A stretch of 32,705 nucleotides of DNA, counting the filler, from an uncultured virus (IMG/VR IMGVR_UViG_2061766007_002310) (lineage: Duplodnaviria > Heunggongvirae > Uroviricota > Caudoviricetes). It is 5 parts of one record of this genome, joined end to end, with 100 filler letters (N's around TTAATTAATTAA, not from the genome) between each part and the next. Parts side by side here need not be neighbours in the genome. Positions count along the whole stretch, not along the records: positions 21,133 to 28,595 come from IMGVR_UViG_2061766007_002310; 4 more parts are not named here. One strand, 5' to 3'. Positions 2,561 through 28,793 of the stretch are shown here, one piece after another. How positions within the stretch are numbered: position 1 is the stretch's first letter; every line of letters starts with the position of its first letter. The position numbers and the translations under genes were made by a program. Under the pieces are notes generated by a model. The model did no database searches. It had not been told where the DNA came from and was given only the letters and a program-made list of their open reading frames with translations.

Positions 2561-3310
2561 CTAGTCTTGCCAGAAACAGTAAAGGCATCCATGTGGGCAG
2601 CGTCTTGGGAACGTGCCGAGGATCTGGCGCTTCGCCAGACACATGCAGTCGTCACGCTGCTTGTTTACCGGCTGACCGTACGAGTCGCCGTTGACGTGCA
2701 GAAGGATCAAGTCCTTGTAACTCACACAGCCCAGCTTGTCGATGAAGTCTGCCGTCAATTCTGTCTCCGCACAGCTTTCGAAGTGGAACCACTCAGTATA
2801 CTTGCCGAGGATTTCCTCTGTACGGCGGAACACGGACTTGGGAGCCTTGAAGGTCTTCCACAGAAGGGGAACGCCCTTGTTCCTCATGCGAAGCACCGCA
2901 TGAGGATACAAGTCGACGACCGATACTCGGCATCGGAACACAATCCCATGCTCCTTTGCGTAGCCGCTCCACATATCAAGAACCTTGTATATGTTGTCCT
3001 GGCATTCCTTGTTCAGCAGAACGACCGGATCCAGACGGAGGACATAGTGAGTGGTGTCGAACCCACGGTCGACAAGTTTCACGAACTGTTCGAACTCGTG
3101 TTCTGGCGTCTTGACACGAGGTTCCAAGTCAGTACCGCCCTGACCGGTCACGGTATGATGGAAGATCACTCGGTCTTGTACGATAAGGAGCTTCTCGACC
3201 ATCTCGTCCGACAGCTCCTTGGATATGACGACGTTGGCTTCGAGCAGATGGGTCTCCCAGTCCGGAACGAAGCACGGGTCATAAGTCTCTGTAATGCCGA
3301 CGTATTTCAT
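2561..3310 (-). CDS. DUF1848-like protein (radical-SAM-related, C-terminal Cys motif)
   Basis: TVTG..LEP.V, LRLDPV, ESCAE, QRDDCMC and terminal CPHGCLYCFW motifs. Confidence 0.75.
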   Translation of the reverse strand: MKYVGITETYDPCFVPDWETHLLEANVVISKELSDEMVEKLLIVQDRVIFHHTVTGQGGTDLEPRVKTPEHEFEQFVKLVDRGFDTTHYVLRLDPVVLLNKECQDNIYKVLDMWSGYAKEHGIVFRCRVSVVDLYPHAVLRMRNKGVPLLWKTFKAPKSVFRRTEEILGKYTEWFHFESCAETELTADFIDKLGCVSYKDLILLHVNGDSYGQPVNKQRDDCMCLAKRQILGTFPRRCPHGCLYCFWQD

Positions 3311-7696: not shown

Positions 7697-8236
7697 CTAC
7701 TCCTCGTCTTCTGGCTTTAATGCTTCGGCAAGCTCGGAACTAAATTTCTCGAAGTCGGCATCGGTCTCTTCGTTCGTTTTCTCATTCTCTTCGGTTCTCC
7801 ACCGAACGTATCCGTATTGGAGAATGTCAGTCTTGTCTCGGAACTTATTGCACATTTCAATCACGTCACAAGTGAACACGTCGTCGGTAATCTTGTCGAT
7901 AATATCCCAGATATCGTCCGGGTGCTTATAGAAATACGAGTTTACCATCTTGGTAATGAACTTGATGACAGTCGCCTTGTTCCGGTCAGCATATGTATGC
8001 TTCTTCAGCAGATGGCGGAAACGCCACTTGTACGACGTATAGTAGCCGTTCTGCTCTGGCGAATACAATGTAGCTTCCGTCGTCAAGTTCTTACGGACAT
8101 GCAGCTTTGCAACCAGTCTGTCATGGTAAAAGCATTTGACGTGAATTTCCATCGACATGCAAGTTTCTGTCTTAATATCGCAATCGTCATTAAACAGTTT
8201 GCGACAATAGTTCTCAAAGTATTGCTGTGTAATCAT
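7697..8236 (-). CDS. hypothetical protein
   Basis: 179 aa; ATGA overlap with the radical SAM gene; acidic C-terminus. Confidence 0.7.
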   Translation of the reverse strand: MITQQYFENYCRKLFNDDCDIKTETCMSMEIHVKCFYHDRLVAKLHVRKNLTTEATLYSPEQNGYYTSYKWRFRHLLKKHTYADRNKATVIKFITKMVNSYFYKHPDDIWDIIDKITDDVFTCDVIEMCNKFRDKTDILQYGYVRWRTEENEKTNEETDADFEKFSSELAEALKPEDEE

Positions 8237-10023
8237 ACATCCTTCCTATCGTAGACATACTTCAATGGCAAGAACCCTTCTTCGCCATAGTTGAGCACCG
8301 GCATAGTGCAAGCGGCGTCGTGGAAGATCTTTCCGTCAGCACGGATGAGTACGGACACGCCGAGAGAAGTCTGGGTAGCGTCTTCTACTCCGTCCAGCAA
8401 GTAGACCAGGTGGGATCCGTTGCGAGCGAAGATAGCATAGGAACTGTCCTTGGCTTCTTCGTATACGACAAGCTTGTAAGACGGATGGTCGGCAAGCTTC
8501 TCGGCAAATTCCTTAAGTCCGACCTTGTTCTTCTCGAACACGTTGGAACGCCAGCGAGTAGACACCAAGCCGTGCATTTCGCACCACTTATTTGTCTCGT
8601 CGAACTTATCCAACTCCATAGAGAAGTCGTCAACGACGAATACGCCGGACATATCGATGCCGTATCCGGCGGCATCGTTAGTCAGCTTGACAATTTCCTC
8701 GTCGTTAGGAATGCACCGTGTACCGAAAATCTTAGTGCGTTCCTCGAAGTCGGTCGAGTGCAAGGACAAGTTGACGTACTTGGTGGTTCCATGCAACGAA
8801 TACAATGCATGACCGAGCTGGTATCCGTTAGACGTAAGCGTAATACGCTTGATCTGGTCATGCGTCGGTATGCCGTACTTCATGAGGGCAGTGGTAAACT
8901 GTTCCAGCTCAACAAGTTCGGCAGTAGGCTCTCCGCCAGTGATCTCGATACTGATCGGGCGACCAGCGGCAATACGCATCACCTTGAATATGGAATTACA
9001 AATAGTGTCGTAGTCAAGACACTTCCAGCTCATACGGCATACCTGGTTTCCGTACTCGCCGTGCTTGTTGTAGCAGAAGGCACACTTCGCTTGGCACGAG
9101 TACGGAAGGACNNNNNNNNNNCCACAAATAGTGTCGTAGTCAAGACCCTTCCAGCTCATATGGCATACCTGGTTTCCGTACTCGCCATGCTTGTTGTAGC
9201 AGAAGGCACACTTCGCTTGGCACGAGTACGGAAGGACTACTTTGACCGACAGAACGCTATACCAGGGGTCTCTCACCGTATATTTATGAGCCAGTTCATT
9301 CAATTCAATCAGACGGTTCATAACTTTGTTATCACGATACGGATTAACGTCGCTATACGGATAGTCGGCGATCATGCGGTTCAGCGTATCCTCGTCGAAA
9401 TACTTCGGCAAGTTGGCGTATAGGTCGGACAACAGTCTGTAGCCGACCGGATTGTCAAGCGAACCGTAGATTCGNNNNNNNNNNCAGACGGCCTTCATTG
9501 ACCGTTTCAGTCTGTTTTTCAGCTTCATGTCTTCCTTGTAAACATCGATCCATTTGTTCTTCTCGTCGGGACAGCCAGCACTGCGGTCTAGGATCATCAT
9601 CTTACGATGCTCATCAGCCTCGTCAAATGCTACGATTTCGGTCACGCTGCCGTCATAGCAGTGAAATTCTCTGTAAATCATTATCTACTCGGTAGGTAAA
9701 ATTGTTTCTTCTTGGCAAACCACGCNNNNNNNNNNGTACGGATTAACGTCGCTATACGGATAGTCGGCGATCATGCGATTCAGCGTATTCTCGTCGAAAT
9801 ACTTCGGAAAGTTAGTGTAGAGATCGGACAACAGTCTGTAGCCGACCGGATTGTCAAGCGAACCGTAGATTCGTTCACGGATTGTCTCCCAAGGGAGCAC
9901 TTCGGATTCTATCTTGGACATATTCTCTCCAAACAGATTCATCTGTTGCTGCATATGTTCAACGTCACGAGCGTCGATGTGATGCACGTTTCCGTTATTG
10001 TCGTAAAACTCTCGTTCAATCAT
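8233..10023 (-). CDS. radical SAM enzyme (two allelic N-termini, starts at 9681 and 10023)
   Basis: CQAKCAFC (CxxxCxxC), ITGGEPT, LTSNG and VNLSLH motifs; no SPASM Cys array seen. Confidence 0.85.
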
Positions 10024-14520: not shown

Positions 14521-16080
14521 TCGTGTAGTCGTCGATTTCCCTCGTCGTGTACTCGGTCTCCCTTAGACCGGAGCAAGCGAAGAGCTTCGTGACTTCGTTA
14601 ACCAGATTTTCCGAATACTCCAGAATGTCGTCNNNNNNNNNNAGCCCAGCGGACAAACTTGATCGTGTAGTCGTCGATTTCCTTCGTCGTGTACTCGGTC
14701 TCCCTTAGACCGGAGCAAGCGAACAGCTTCGTGACTTCGTTAACCAGATTTTCCGAATACTCCAGAATGTCGTCGTACTTCCAGCCGCCTTGCTTGATGT
14801 TCAGCAAGAACTCACGCTGTTCCGTACGGTCGACGACCACACGGTGCATCGTTGCGATATCCCTTGCGGTGAACAGCAATCTGACGCAGTGCATCATGTT
14901 CTTGGCGTCGTATCCTTGACCGTGCTGGATAGTCGTGTTGTACCTTTCCGGATTTCTTTTGGCAACCCATTCCTTGTACTCCGCACGTTCCTTGAACTCC
15001 TTGGAATAGGCGTTACGGTTGAACACCATGTAGCCAAGCACAGGCTTTCCCTTCGGAATTGAATTCAGCTGGACATCGCCACTGGTTTCCTCGTTACGGA
15101 CGATACCGTAAGCCCAGCGCCATTCGTGCTCGTTCTGTCCGGGAATGTCACGTTCGGCCTTCGGCTGTCCGTAGATGGCAAAACCGTTGTCGATATGGTC
15201 GATGGCAGCTATGGCATACCACTTCTGGTCTGAACCGTAGTCGTCGTCCATATGCGTCTTCAACCATTCCTTGACCGGAATAGCGCCGCCGTTAGGCATA
15301 NNNNNNNNNNATGCTCGTTCTGTCCTGGAATGTCACGTTCGGACTTCGGCTGTCCGTAGATGGCAAAACCGTTGTCGATATGGTCGATGGCCGCAATAGC
15401 GTACCATTTCTGGTCTGAACCGTAGTCGTCGTCCTTATGCGTCTTCAACCATTCCTTGACCGGAATAGCGCCGCCGTTAGGCATANNNNNNNNNNAGCAA
15501 AACCGTTGTCGATATGGTCGATGGCCGCAATGGCATACCATTTCTGGTCTGAACCGTAGTCGTCGTCCTTATGCGTCTTCAACAATTCCTTGACCGGAAT
15601 AGCGCCGCCGTTAGGCATAGGCACATAGCAGTAGTCGAGAACTTGAGGCGGTTCCTCCGGCTTCGGCTTGAATACCTTCTTGTTCATTCCACGCGCACGA
15701 GAGATCTGCCCCTTCGCGTATTCGACGAAGGTCTTCTCACAACGGCGTGTGACGAAGTCCATTTCCTCACGGATCTTCTCAAGGAATTCCTTTCCCTCGA
15801 TGATACAGCGATCCGGAGAATACAGCATTTCGAGAGCTTGCGGATTCGCCCTAGAAAGCTCACGGAAAAACTTGGTTATTTCCCAGTAGGTCTCGTCGTT
15901 GGTCGTGTCGGCAATCTGGTCGCCGATATCTTGTCTAAGACGAGATTCCCATGGCAAGATGTAGACACCACGGATATCCTGGTCGGACGTAGGCGTGTTA
16001 AGTCCAAACGAAGTGGAGCCAGATATTACCTTGAATATTAAGGTTCCGGTTTCACGAACCTTCTTTTCTGTTTCCGTCAT
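14444..16080 (-). CDS. predicted nucleotidyltransferase (PF10127 / T4 NrdC.11-like), in overlapping allelic fragments
   Basis: VISGSTSFGLNTPTSDQDIRGVY (GS...DxD), NPQALEML, GYDAKNMMHCVRLL, LLNIKQG; true start MTETEKK at 16080. Confidence 0.85.
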
Positions 16081-16238
16081 CAATCGTCCCCTTTGTCGCA
16101 CCAGTACGCATTGTCGCAGCCTTCTTCCGGTTCCGGACACTTCCAGAATGCGTTGGATTCACAAGAGCCAGCGAGCAATGCGCTTTCGGACGGCATCGCC
16201 ATAATTTCCATTGTCGGCTTAACATATTTTTTAGTCAT
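16080..16238 (-). CDS. 52-aa RiPP-like precursor peptide MTKKYVKPTMEIMAMPSESALLAGSCESNAFWKCPEPEEGCDNAYWCDKGDD (not in ORF track)
   Basis: Translated by hand; own promoter and GAGG RBS; TGATG coupling to the nucleotidyltransferase; second allele start MKKKYVKPT at 20664-20638. Confidence 0.8.
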   Translation of the reverse strand: MTKKYVKPTMEIMAMPSESALLAGSCESNAFWKCPEPEEGCDNAYWCDKGDD

Positions 16239-22951: not shown

Positions 22952-23131
22952 TTAGTAATTAGTTACTACGTACCAGATGGTCTTGTAGGCGACATAGAGC
23001 CAGCCGAGGAAGCCATGGAGGATGCACCACCCTACAGAATGGTTGAAGACCCACGACATGCACACGGCAATCGTTGTGCCTATTAAGGGGAAGGTGCATG
23101 ACACATTGGAGCCAGATTTGCTAGAAGACAT
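22952..23131 (-). CDS. 59-aa membrane protein MSSSKSGSNVSCTFPLIGTTIAVCMSWVFNHSVGWCILHGFLGWLYVAYKTIWYVVTNY (not in ORF track)
   Basis: Translated by hand; GAGG RBS; SW..N.S..W..LHG..GW.YV.Y pattern. Confidence 0.7.
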   Translation of the reverse strand: MSSSKSGSNVSCTFPLIGTTIAVCMSWVFNHSVGWCILHGFLGWLYVAYKTIWYVVTNY

Positions 23132-23177
23132 AATACCCTCTTATTCATTTTATGNNNNNNNNNNACAAGGTACACTA

Positions 23178-24642
23178 ATGCCTAAGACATCCAAGAAGCT
23201 TTCCCATGTGATCGGAAGGCCATCCAACACCGAGTCGAAGCAGTTCGGCAAGAATCTCGGTATCGCAAACCTCCTCATGCACTTCAACTTCGACAAGGCA
23301 CGTGTGGAAGCCTATCTGCACGAACTCATCGAGGCTGGCTGGCTCGCTCCGAACACGAAACCGTCCAAGTTCAAGGAAAACATCGAGGAAACTTGCAAGT
23401 TCATCACCACCCCGGTCTCCGAGGTTGGCACAGTAAAGCCGCTCAAGAACCCAAGGGAACGCCTCTCGCCAGATGACGAGCCGGAAGTCCAGGTTTTCGA
23501 GGATCATCCGATGTTCGACTACAGCGAAGAAGAGCGCCAAGGCGCAGAGGAACGCTACAAGTTCGAGATGAAGAAGACCGAGCGTTCCTTGAGGAAGCTC
23601 CGTCAAGAGGCATTCATCGGCAAGCAGAAGGTCAACCGCATGGCTATCGCCGCTGCGTCCGTCAAGCCAGCCGAAATCAAGCTCAACCTTGTCGATGCCA
23701 AGGTAAAAGGCTCCAACTACTGTGTGATGCCCATTTCCGACTTGCACTTCGGCGAAGTCGTACAGCCAAACGCTACCTACTGCTACAACAAGTACAATCC
23801 GGAAATCGCCCAGAAGCGTCTCGTGCGCCTCTTCGAGGAAACCTACCGTCACGCCAAGGCAGAAGGTTGCGACAAGCTCCATATCTTGTTGCTAGGTGAC
23901 TTAATATCCGGCGAAATCCACGACGAACTCCGTGAATCAAACGCATTCACCGCACCCAAGTGCGTGAGCGTGCTCAACTCGATCCTCATCGGCATCATCC
24001 TCGAATATGCGAAGCTGTTCAAGTCCGTGAGCATCGCTTGCGTGGTCGGTAACCATTCCCGTACCGGAAAGAAGCTCCAGGCCCACAACCGTTCTCTGGA
24101 CAACTACGAGCACATCATTTACAGCACCATCAAGGATCGCTGCGAGGCCGAAGCCAAGAACATTACAGTTGAATTTGACGAGGAAGCCCCGTTCGCAATC
24201 ACGACCATCGGCAATCAGCGCTGGATGATCGAGCACGGCGACCGCTANNNNNNNNNNCGAATTCGACGAAGAAGCCCCGTTCGCCATCACGACCATCGGC
24301 AATCAGCGCTGGATGATCGAGCACGGCGACCGCTACAAGGGCTCCACCGCCGCAGCTGGCGCTATCAACACCGTGCTGCGCAACATCGGCAACGACATCC
24401 GTCACAACCACGCAGACGTGGCCATCATGGGTCACTGGCACGTGGGCGCAGCTGGCGCAGTCGACGCACGTGAGGACGGTCGCATGACTAAGGTGTTCAT
24501 CAACCCCAGCATGGTCGGCCCCGACCCGTTCGCAGTGACTACGCTGCATGCCTTCTACCCTGCGGAATCCAACGTGTTCATCACGGACGGCAACAAGATC
24601 AAGTCCAAGATCGAGATCGACCTGTCCGAAATCCAGGGATAA
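23178..24642 (+). CDS. calcineurin-like metallophosphoesterase with N-terminal extension
   Basis: SDLH, GD, GNH, HGD and GHWH motifs in canonical order; short duplication at the 24248 gap. Confidence 0.88.
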
Positions 24643-24643
24643 T

Positions 24644-25358
24644 ATGTTTACAATCGAAAACTACAATCCGTTCGTCTTCGCAGACGTGGAGACCATGCTC
24701 CGTGCCAAATTCGCCAACACGGCTGGCATGGACAACACGGTGGTCGTCCTTGGTTCCAGCATTTCGAAGCTTACCCCGGAACAGTTCAAGCAGCAGCATC
24801 TGGGCATGCGTCTTGTCGTGTATAACTTGGAACAGCTCTTCAAGGGCAGTCCTTGGCTCAACAACAAGACCATGGCATGGCTCGCCGCCGCAGATGAAGT
24901 GTGNNNNNNNNNNCAACCTCGAACAGCTCTTCAAGGGCAGTCCCTGGCTCAACAACAAGACCATGGCATGGCTCGCCGCCGCAGATGAAGTGTGGGACTA
25001 CGATATCGAGAACATCAACTTCCTCTACGCCAACGGAATCCGTGCAAGCTACGTTCCGATGGAATACACCGAGGAACTGAAGTTCACTTCTACCTTCACT
25101 GGCCAGAAGGACATCGACGTCCTCTTCTACGGTGCGCCTACCGACCGCCGTCTGAAGATTCTGCAGAGCTGGATGGGCATGAGCCAGCATCACGCAGTAA
25201 CCATGATCGCCACCGGCATCAGCGGTAAGCTTCTGGAACACTACATCTACCGNNNNNNNNNNAATTCTGCAGAGCTGGATGGGCATGAGCCAGCACCACG
25301 CAGTCACAATGATCGCCACCGGCATCAGCGGTAAGCTTCTGGAACACTACATCTACCG
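24644..25358 (+). CDS. GT-B glycosyltransferase-like protein, 5' part
   Basis: YNLEQL, VWDYDIENI, KDIDVLFYG...RR..IL; starts 1 nt after the phosphoesterase stop. Confidence 0.65.
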
Positions 25359-25784
25359 NNNNNNNNNNNNNNNNNNNNNNNNNNNNNNNNNNNNNNNNNN
25401 NNNNNNNNNNNNNNNNNNNNNNNNNNNNNNNNNNNNNNNNNNNNNNNNNNNNNNNNNNNNNNNNNNNNNNNNNNNNNNNNNNNNNNNNNNNNNNNNNNNN
25501 NNNNNNNNNNNNNNNNNNNNNNNNNNNNNNNNNNNNNNNNNNNNNNNNNNNNNNNNNNNNNNNNNNNNNNNNNNNNNNNNNNNNNNNNNNNNNNNNNNNN
25601 NNNNNNNNNNNNNNNNNNNNNNNNNNNNNNNNNNNNNNNNNNNNNNNNNNNNNNNNNNNNNNNNNNNNNNNNNNNNNNNNNNNNNNNNNNNNNNNNNNNN
25701 NNNNNNNNNNNNNNNNNNNNNNNNNNNNNNNNNNNNNNNNNNNNNNNNNNNNNNNNNNNNNNNNNNNNNNNNNNNNNNNNNNNN

Positions 25785-25838
25785 GTAGATATAAAAACGG
25801 TAGGGGACCTGGTCAAACTGGTAGACTCGCTCATTTAA
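25785..25838 (+). CDS. allelic 3' end of the ACP-like gene
   Basis: VDIKTVGDLVKLVDSLI* matches 28470-28523. Confidence 0.8.
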   Translation, partial: VDIKTVGDLVKLVDSLI

Positions 25839-25841
25839 ATT

Positions 25842-25868
25842 AAAGGCCACCAAAACGGTGGCCTTTTT
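25842..25868 (+). terminator. intrinsic terminator after ACP (allele at 28527-28551)
   Basis: AAAGGCCACC-AAAAC-GGTGGCCTTTTT. Confidence 0.85.
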
Positions 25869-27953: not shown

Positions 27954-28016
27954 GTAGAATCCTTGTATGGGAAGCTTCATTGCTTATAATATACGTTTAT
28001 CTCTTTNNNNNNNNNN

Positions 28017-28290
28017 TTCCAAGATCATCTTGAATCTCCATGCGTTCGAGAACGCATACCGTCAGGAACAGGTCAGAATGTTCGTCCCGGTCATCAACGG
28101 CAGCTGCGTAGTGTCCGAGCAGAGCACTCGAAACGAGTTCTCCACGGCAATCGTGGAATCCACCACTAGGAACCTCAACAGCACTTTGAAGACGCTGTTG
28201 AAGTCAGGTGACTGGGAACGTGTCGGTATGAATGCACCGGATACCTACAAGATCCACTGCAGCAACCGCTTCCGTAGCGGACTGAGGTAG
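28017..28290 (+). CDS. glycosyltransferase-like protein, 3' part
   Basis: SKIILNLH...EQVR...VVSEQS continues ...HYIYR from 25358. Confidence 0.65.
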
Positions 28291-28292
28291 TC

Positions 28293-28523
28293 ATGGATAC
28301 ATTCGAGAAAGTGCAAGAAATCATTGCGAACTTGTTCCAGATCCATCCGAATCAGATCACCATGGAATCCGACCTCAGCGACGACTTGCTCGCTGACGAG
28401 CTGGACAACGTGGAAATCATCATGGCAGTCGAGGACGAGTTCAACATCACTATCCATGACGAGGACGCTATCGATATAAAAACGGTAGGGGACCTGGTCA
28501 AACTGGTAGACTCGCTGATTTAA
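28293..28523 (+). CDS. acpP: acyl carrier protein homolog lacking the Ppant serine (S36E)
   Basis: DLLADELDNVEIIMAVEDEFNITIHDEDAIDIKTVGD aligns without gaps to the ACP consensus DLGADSLDxVELxMAxEEEF; GAGG RBS. Confidence 0.9.
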   Translation: MDTFEKVQEIIANLFQIHPNQITMESDLSDDLLADELDNVEIIMAVEDEFNITIHDEDAIDIKTVGDLVKLVDSLI

Positions 28524-28793
28524 ATCAAAGGCCACCGTTTTGGTGGCCTTTCTGATAAACTGCTCACAAATACCCAATCAGGTGTACAATGTTCTNNNNN
28601 NNNNNNNNNNNNNNNNNNNNNNNNNNNNNNNNNNNNNNNTTAATTAATTAANNNNNNNNNNNNNNNNNNNNNNNNNNNNNNNNNNNNNNNNNNNNCGTCT
28701 TGGTATAAATAGGTCTGTCGTGTCGATCACGAATGATCTCGGTTCCGCAAAAACTCATTCAAGAATCCTTGTATGGGTGGCATCATTGCCACT

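Follow-up and report, generated by a model that had tools for sequence, protein, structure and literature searches.

The open reading frame at positions 28293–28523 (+ strand) of the window, the whole 32,705-nt stretch of viral DNA analysed here, was confirmed to encode an AcpP-type, AcpP-derived protein of 76 aa that lacks the canonical attachment Ser of acyl carrier proteins (ACPs). The frame is intact, stops with TAA at 28521–28523 and carries a Glu at the position of the missing Ser. We infer that this protein, referred to below as the look-alike, is unloadable and binds ACP clients, and that it targets a host protein. The best explanation, to which we give somewhat less than an even chance, is an ACP mimic, unloadable at the canonical site, that would occupy the docking sites of the host's ACP-dependent enzymes.

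Few proteins of the bacterial cell are as highly connected as ACP. A natural phage protein that has the ACP docking surface but is unloadable would offer a ready tool for probing, and perhaps for inhibiting, ACP-dependent enzymes, and would add a new route by which phages take over host metabolism.

Family and predicted fold of the look-alike

The 76-aa protein matched PF00550 (PP-binding; Pfam) with 32.6 bits against a cut-off of 20.8, and scored above the curated NCBIfam cut-offs for AcpP (NF002148, 78.1 vs 71; NF002150, 73.6 vs 66; TIGR00517, 71.8 vs 70.45). Because these cut-offs are passed, annotation pipelines would still give the name "acyl carrier protein" to viral genes of this kind that have lost the Ser, and virome studies that infer metabolism by taking phage ACPs for fatty-acid genes may consequently be wrong about them. 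The solved structures that it matched were bacterial and plastid ACPs, comprising 109 distinct PDB chains at E up to 0.01, the best of which was 1x3o (E 3.3e-16).

Three alignments with solved ACPs placed DLLADELDNVEIIMAVEDEF of the look-alike onto DLGADSLDxVELIMxxEDEF, with DELD over DSLD, indicating that Glu36 occupies the position of the phosphopantetheine Ser. Residues D35, L37, D38, V40, E41, M44, E47, E49 and F50 were identical to those of the solved ACPs in these alignments, which confirms the correspondence with helix II of AcpP described in the sequence-only reading. The AlphaFold model of the protein (68 sequences) had a pLDDT of 91.3 and helices at residues 3–15, 36–50, 56–59 and 65–75. 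As helix II is predicted at 36–50, residue 36 would open it, as it does in real ACPs. Compared with predicted models of phage ACPs, the model gave TM values of 0.85–0.92. Among the traits of the ACP family, the curated profile score and, in the model, the four-helix fold were thus present, and the phosphopantetheine Ser was absent.

Bacterial AcpP (TIGR00517/PF00550; PDB 1x3o, 2fq0, 2ehs and 1l0h) shares with the look-alike its length, the four-helix fold and the acidic helix II motif except for one residue. The look-alike differs from it by Glu in place of Ser, by Leu in place of the Gly of DLGxDS in most members, and by lying in a phage, where neither fab nor acpS genes surround it (window and contig L003). 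Phage ACPs in the databases are, like the look-alike, small ACP-fold genes whose role is unassigned and which often stand alone, but all 16 GenBank entries that were checked keep the Ser in DS(L/I/F)(D/E) where the look-alike has Glu (GAP32, fHe-Yen9-03, helene 12B3, ICP1, BCSR5, Motura, R6L, Bajun, phiRSL1, RP13, P018-4, ctuI7215, P-HM1, Harreka_1 and two "Bacteriophage sp.").

Conservation of Glu36 and structure of the locus

Codon 36 is GAG (28398–28400, + strand), which by the genetic code is at least two base changes away from every Ser codon. The same codon was found in all four DNA copies (the window, L002, L003 and L004), and no difference was listed at 28398–28400 in contigs of four independent runs, two of DNA (sheep gut and pig gut) and two of metatranscriptome libraries; contigs of both metatranscriptome libraries thus contain the gene, but contigs are unable to show transcription. 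Glu36 was also found in 31/31 homologues with 67–98% identity that were retrieved by a search among 5.8 billion proteins. Across the 32 aligned sequences, down to 67% identity, 26 columns were invariant, and those in helix II and the next loop were D35, E36, L37, D38, V40, E41, I43, A45, E47, E49, F50, I52, T53, I54, H55 and E57. A more distant homologue (45% identical) on an unrelated AT-rich, phage-like contig, L005, retained DLLADELD. Comparison of the DNA copies gave dN/dS values of 0.07–0.14 (L003 and L004 were identical, and the remaining pairs were counted), and the reading frame was unbroken in all copies.

These data support the conclusions that Glu36 is not a sequencing error and that the look-alike is under purifying selection. 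The earlier reading of DELD for DSLD and its judgement that a base-call error was unlikely both stood, and the check that it had proposed, for Ser36 or relaxed selection among homologues, turned up neither. Loss of the catalytic Ser and dispensability of the gene in close relatives could also be expected if a host acpP had been captured and its remnant were now decaying or neutral; this reading, already disfavoured, is barely credible given the low dN/dS, the 26 invariant columns in 32 sequences, the intact frame of every copy and the confident model (pLDDT 91.3).

Some carrier proteins, such as LysW, work through a Glu carboxylate. The invariance of Glu36, which was never replaced by Ala, Thr or Gln in the 31 homologues and L005, was also counted for a look-alike that is still a carrier, with its load attached non-canonically to the Glu carboxylate or to a different residue. 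We regard this as very improbable, since no ligase, ATP-grasp or transferase gene was linked, no other Ser was conserved throughout the family (31 homologues and L005), and related viral families accept Asp, Pro or Ala at the site. The Ser residues elsewhere in the protein were variable: positions 26 and 29 were Thr and Lys in P0028/P0029, position 74 was Thr in P0003, and position 29 was Thr in L005. His55 was considered as a special partner of Glu36 and rejected, since this position is Pro in L005, Arg in P0127 and Ser in P0222, and a canonical AcpP also has ITIHDEDA.

The signals around the gene agreed with the earlier description of a ribosome-binding site, a terminator and an allelic 3′ end. 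By sequence reading, a Shine–Dalgarno-like GAGG (28284–28287, + strand) is located 5 nt before the ATG, within the end of the upstream gene. A terminator-like hairpin follows the stop codon (28524–28556, + strand), with a core stem at 28527–28550 and then UUUCUGAU; folding gave −18.7 kcal/mol and a z-score of −5.8. The post-stop hairpin was not called by a consensus terminator scan on L003, although folding did detect it. Upstream, the 3′ part of a gene encoding a 263-aa GT-B-fold protein (28017–28290, + strand) ends with TAG at 28288–28290, 2 nt before the ATG of the look-alike, and its 5′ part is lost in a 10-N gap (28007–28016). The 5′ part of a second copy of this GT-B-fold gene (24644–25358, + strand) is broken by 10-N gaps and ends at a 426-N gap, after which the 3′ end of a second look-alike allele, VDIKTVGDLVKLVDSLI followed by a stop codon, was found (25785–25838, + strand) together with a similar hairpin (25842–25866, + strand; −17.3 kcal/mol, z-score −4.75).

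The window is a scaffold patchwork of metagenomic assembly, so the copy at 25785–25838 was taken as a strain allele. It contains 53 runs of N, most of which are 10-N gaps with mutually repeating flanks, as well as four gaps of 150–443 N and several 44N-TTAATTAATTAA-44N linkers. The exonuclease–GT–ACP locus occurs twice in it, as two strain alleles (23022–25838 and 28017–28556).

Phage setting and the upstream GT-B-fold gene

The gene order was read on the 10.4-kb contig L003, where ThyX (− strand), a phrog_284 exonuclease of 458 aa and the 263-aa protein precede the look-alike, whose ATG again lies 2 nt after the stop codon of the 263-aa protein gene. Downstream are the hairpin, two proteins without assigned function, PhoH (− strand) and, farther away, a Dda-like helicase. 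Further genes in the window encode NrdD/NrdG, an NAD-dependent ligase, a radical-SAM protein, DUF1848 and RlaP. The DUF1848, radical-SAM and RlaP-type nucleotidyltransferase genes (2561–3310, 8233–9681 and 15445–16140, all − strand) share a phage region with ThyX, an NAD-dependent ligase fragment and NrdD/NrdG.

Two genes downstream of the look-alike, L003 4483–5793 encodes a 437-aa protein with a long coiled-coil part that weakly matched the SbcC-like phrog_77, and no ATPase domain was found in it. Its PADLOC matches to LmuB/JetC (MukB-like) models were weak and confined to the coiled-coil part, and no conclusion was drawn from them; they are of note because E. coli ACP binds MukB.

Contigs with cluster members reached 412–470 kb, and a related IMG/VR record of 105.7 kb was rated 26% complete, indicating a very large phage. 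Most of the runs containing the stretch were metagenomes from bioreactors or from the gut of ruminants or pigs, and blastn of the region against GenBank phages gave no match. The 33 window ORFs, 10 L003 proteins and 11 L005 proteins included no member of a phosphopantetheinyl transferase (PPTase) or fatty-acid-synthesis family, and PADLOC gave no match for the look-alike or the GT-B-fold protein. Five related viral records, including one of 355 kb that is 93% complete, lack PF00550. Large gut phages carry the look-alike as an accessory gene, and it may be best described as an "add-on" gene that would be co-transcribed in a clade of very large ones.

The 263-aa neighbour was modelled by AlphaFold with a pLDDT of 95.2 as a GT-B fold with two Rossmann domains. 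Its top Foldseek matches were GT4-type and other GT-B enzymes (E 8e-7 to 3e-5, TM 0.4–0.6), and the earlier naming of an adjacent glycosyltransferase (GT) therefore holds at the level of the fold. The protein has no Pfam match of its own; PF13524 was present in 16/43 aligned homologues, and the NCBIfam WaaS/CpsH match reached 19.1 bits against a cut-off of 60. The family (L003 2305–3093), for which Pfam has no model of its own, has many members on viral contigs of 100–355 kb.

The sequence-only reading had suggested that the look-alike might serve as a subunit of this GT, and such a role lost ground. The GT family was confirmed in 183 IMG/VR stretches, of which 78 loci were kept, and no ACP-type ORF was detected at any of these 78 loci in flanks of up to 4 kb on each side with an ACP profile that does detect ordinary ACPs. 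At L006 the GT is 87% identical and the ACP gene is missing; ~15 nt after the GT stop comes a hairpin unlike that of L003, and then the TTTCTGATAAACTG flank that both contigs share (L006 4790–4865 compared with L003 3094–3395). L007, whose GT is 81% identical, is likewise without the ACP gene. Presence or absence at one exact spot among close relatives shows that a small accessory gene was added where an existing transcription unit ends. No GT lies next to the L005 homologue, whose neighbours are a sliding-clamp fragment, a DNA methylase and a deoxyribosyltransferase-like gene. The look-alike is probably not an obligate GT subunit, as the 78 loci without an ACP-type gene argue.

A broader form of this reading, in which the look-alike would regulate a phage protein or form a subunit of one, the foremost candidate being the GT-B-fold enzyme whose gene ends 2 nt before it within one transcription unit, also appears unlikely. 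The 2-nt spacing between GT stop and ACP start, the one common terminator, the constant GT–ACP arrangement in L002, L003, L004 and the window, and the well-modelled GT-B fold of the neighbour (pLDDT 95.2; Foldseek E about 1e-6 to GT4-type enzymes) would be in keeping with it, but they are countered by the 78/78 GT loci without an ACP-type ORF in their flanks, by the 87%- and 81%-identical GTs in phages that have no look-alike, and by the lack of a GT neighbour at L005 and at 12 other Glu-type loci.

Serine-less ACPs in other viruses and a candidate mode of action

The motif DLxADE(L/F)Dx(V/I/M)E was back-translated and scanned over IMG/VR, with variants carrying other codons at the Ser site. 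The Glu scan gave 41 stretches, 25 of them with confirmed ACP-like ORFs; the Asp/Asn scan gave 24 stretches and 23 confirmed ORFs, all with Asp; the Ala/Thr/Pro scan gave 29 stretches and 19 confirmed ORFs (14 Pro, 3 Ala and 2 Thr); and the Gly/Cys/Trp scan gave 3 stretches, none of which was confirmed. Two Ser scans gave at least 120 stretches each, with at least 228 confirmed ACP-like ORFs. The Ser was thus lost at no fewer than 67 viral loci under one narrow motif, and the serine-less look-alike is no one-off. These other loci resemble it in belonging to the same fold family, in having lost the Ser and in having no fab or PPTase neighbours, but their identity to the look-alike family does not exceed about 50%, and they lie in different genome contexts.

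The 29 Glu-type sequences (the 25 together with those of the window, L002, L003 and L005) formed 15 clusters at 90% and 11 clusters at 50% identity. When column 36 was omitted from the tree, the 12 Glu rows were scattered and required 10 changes (shuffles, mean 11.6; 31/500 as low), and a single Glu clade was compatible with the data (p-AU 0.37). Neighbours at 12 Glu-type loci were varied (dUTPase, PhoH, GH108 lysozyme, DnaJ, peptide deformylase, T4 gp15-like, NUDIX and methylases), and none of their 86 neighbour proteins belonged to a fatty-acid or phosphopantetheinyl-transferase family.

One large, probably marine, viral ACP-like family (MEKVVKAIAEHLDVD...DLGADxFDI...; L094, L096, L100, L106, L111–L117, L121, L124, L133, L381–L397 and L403–L428) has Glu, Asp, Pro or Ala at the Ser site and a less acidic helix II, which suggests that the Ser was simply lost there and that Glu as such is not required. 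Members at L100 and L133 lie near genes for GH108 lysozyme, DnaJ and peptide deformylase, and L133 also has PhoH.

Other searches returned little. The family alignment recovered one weak IMG/VR stretch (L001), which was not confirmed by the ACP profile, and the L005 homologue used as query recovered only L005. Neither of two family motifs was found in species-representative genomes, where the sole match was a canonical Planctomycetota AcpP with Ser, which by ORF reading sits in a fabH-fabD-fabG-acpP-fabF cluster. No description of serine-less phage ACPs was found in the full-text literature, of which few subscription journals were covered. Neither a phage form with a conserved Glu in place of Ser nor so broad a range of serine-less viral ACPs seems to have been described so far, and the family and fold themselves are ordinary.

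The look-alike is AcpP-derived and predicted to fold into four helices. Since Glu stands in for Ser where helix II begins, established ACP biochemistry would bar 4′-phosphopantetheine from the canonical site. The loss of Ser in a well-conserved copy suggests that it probably works by binding other proteins, so that its action would proceed through protein–protein contacts of the fully conserved acidic helix II and not through acyl carriage. Helix II is the surface read by ACP partners, and its exact retention argues for docking on something built for ACP. The absence of linked PPTase or fatty-acid genes, together with contexts that differ between loci, fits a partner that is not encoded next door. 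The most likely mode would be that of a permanently "apo" ACP mimic filling the ACP-docking site of host enzymes (lipid/membrane synthesis), and host ACP-dependent enzymes may in this way be blocked or redirected during infection.

Known ACP states without the prosthetic group offer comparisons. Falekun et al. 2021 (PMC8547962) describe a Plasmodium mACP from which the phosphopantetheine (Ppant) group is absent and which still binds and stabilises Isd11–Nfs1. Like that protein, which lost its prosthetic group and was kept as a binding subunit, the look-alike has been retained under selection without the Ppant Ser; unlike it, the look-alike is phage-encoded and has no conserved neighbour that was found, whereas mACP is eukaryotic and organellar and has the LYR protein Isd11, with Nfs1, as its partner. 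According to PMC3340395, ACP(S36T) is not modified and is non-functional, and a review (PMC3896788) presents apo-ACP as a strong inhibitor of glycerol-3-phosphate acyltransferase that arrests growth. E. coli apo-ACP and ACP(S36T) are unloadable like the look-alike and may serve as a model for a dominant-negative mimic, but they are laboratory states or host-protein mutants, whereas the look-alike is a naturally selected phage gene with Glu. The inhibition of an acyltransferase by apo-ACP and the Ppant-free Plasmodium mACP favour a dominant-negative ACP mimic.

Several observations run against docking on host ACP-dependent enzymes. According to the same review, apo-ACP is reportedly not bound by SpoT, and the earlier suggestion that the look-alike titrates SpoT is weakened to that extent. 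The marine family with Glu, Asp, Pro or Ala at the site likewise counts against it; a specific role of Glu as a phosphate mimic is not general, and the proposal that Glu mimics the phosphodiester was weakened as a general rule. Alternatively, the acidic helix II may be conserved for a phage-encoded partner or for nucleic-acid mimicry.

A small, very acidic nucleic-acid mimic or anti-defence protein would have a target that is no ACP client and would use the ACP fold as a mere scaffold. The counted net charge of about −17 over 76 aa suits such a protein, as do the neighbours from DNA and nucleotide metabolism both in the first context (ThyX, exonuclease, PhoH, Dda helicase and NrdD/G) and in that of L005 (sliding clamp, deoxyribosyltransferase-like protein and DNA methylase), and the presence or absence of the gene between relatives was also counted for it. 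Canonical viral ACPs are, however, equally acidic over the aligned part (Ser-type mean −13.0 vs Glu-type mean −12.6), no PADLOC match supports an anti-defence role, and the exact retention of AcpP-specific helix II residues would be superfluous for a generic acidic mimic, so we consider this reading improbable.

If the dominant-negative ACP mimic is extended beyond the window family, serine-less ACP look-alikes, mostly acidic at the old site, could form a widespread and undescribed class of phage host-takeover proteins, jamming the docking sites of host lipid or envelope enzymes or of other ACP-binding machines, with Glu36 replacing the phosphate of the prosthetic arm in the window family; this wider proposal is speculative and in our view rather doubtful.

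Glu-type domains were also found in multi-domain proteins when 1.84 billion representatives were searched with the profile. In the 200 domains of the best 150 representatives, the Ser site held Ser in 164, Glu in 14 and other residues in 22, counts that are biased to Glu by the query profile and do not represent frequencies. Four bacterial proteins (P0151, P0106, P0182 and, from Alistipes, P0252; 216–425 aa) have two or three ACP-like domains, at least one of which in each protein carries Glu or another non-Ser residue, and their N-termini resemble signal peptides or lipoproteins by eye. P0242 and P0129 have TPR repeats, with a thioredoxin in P0129, fused to C-terminal ACP-like domains with DELD or DDLD.
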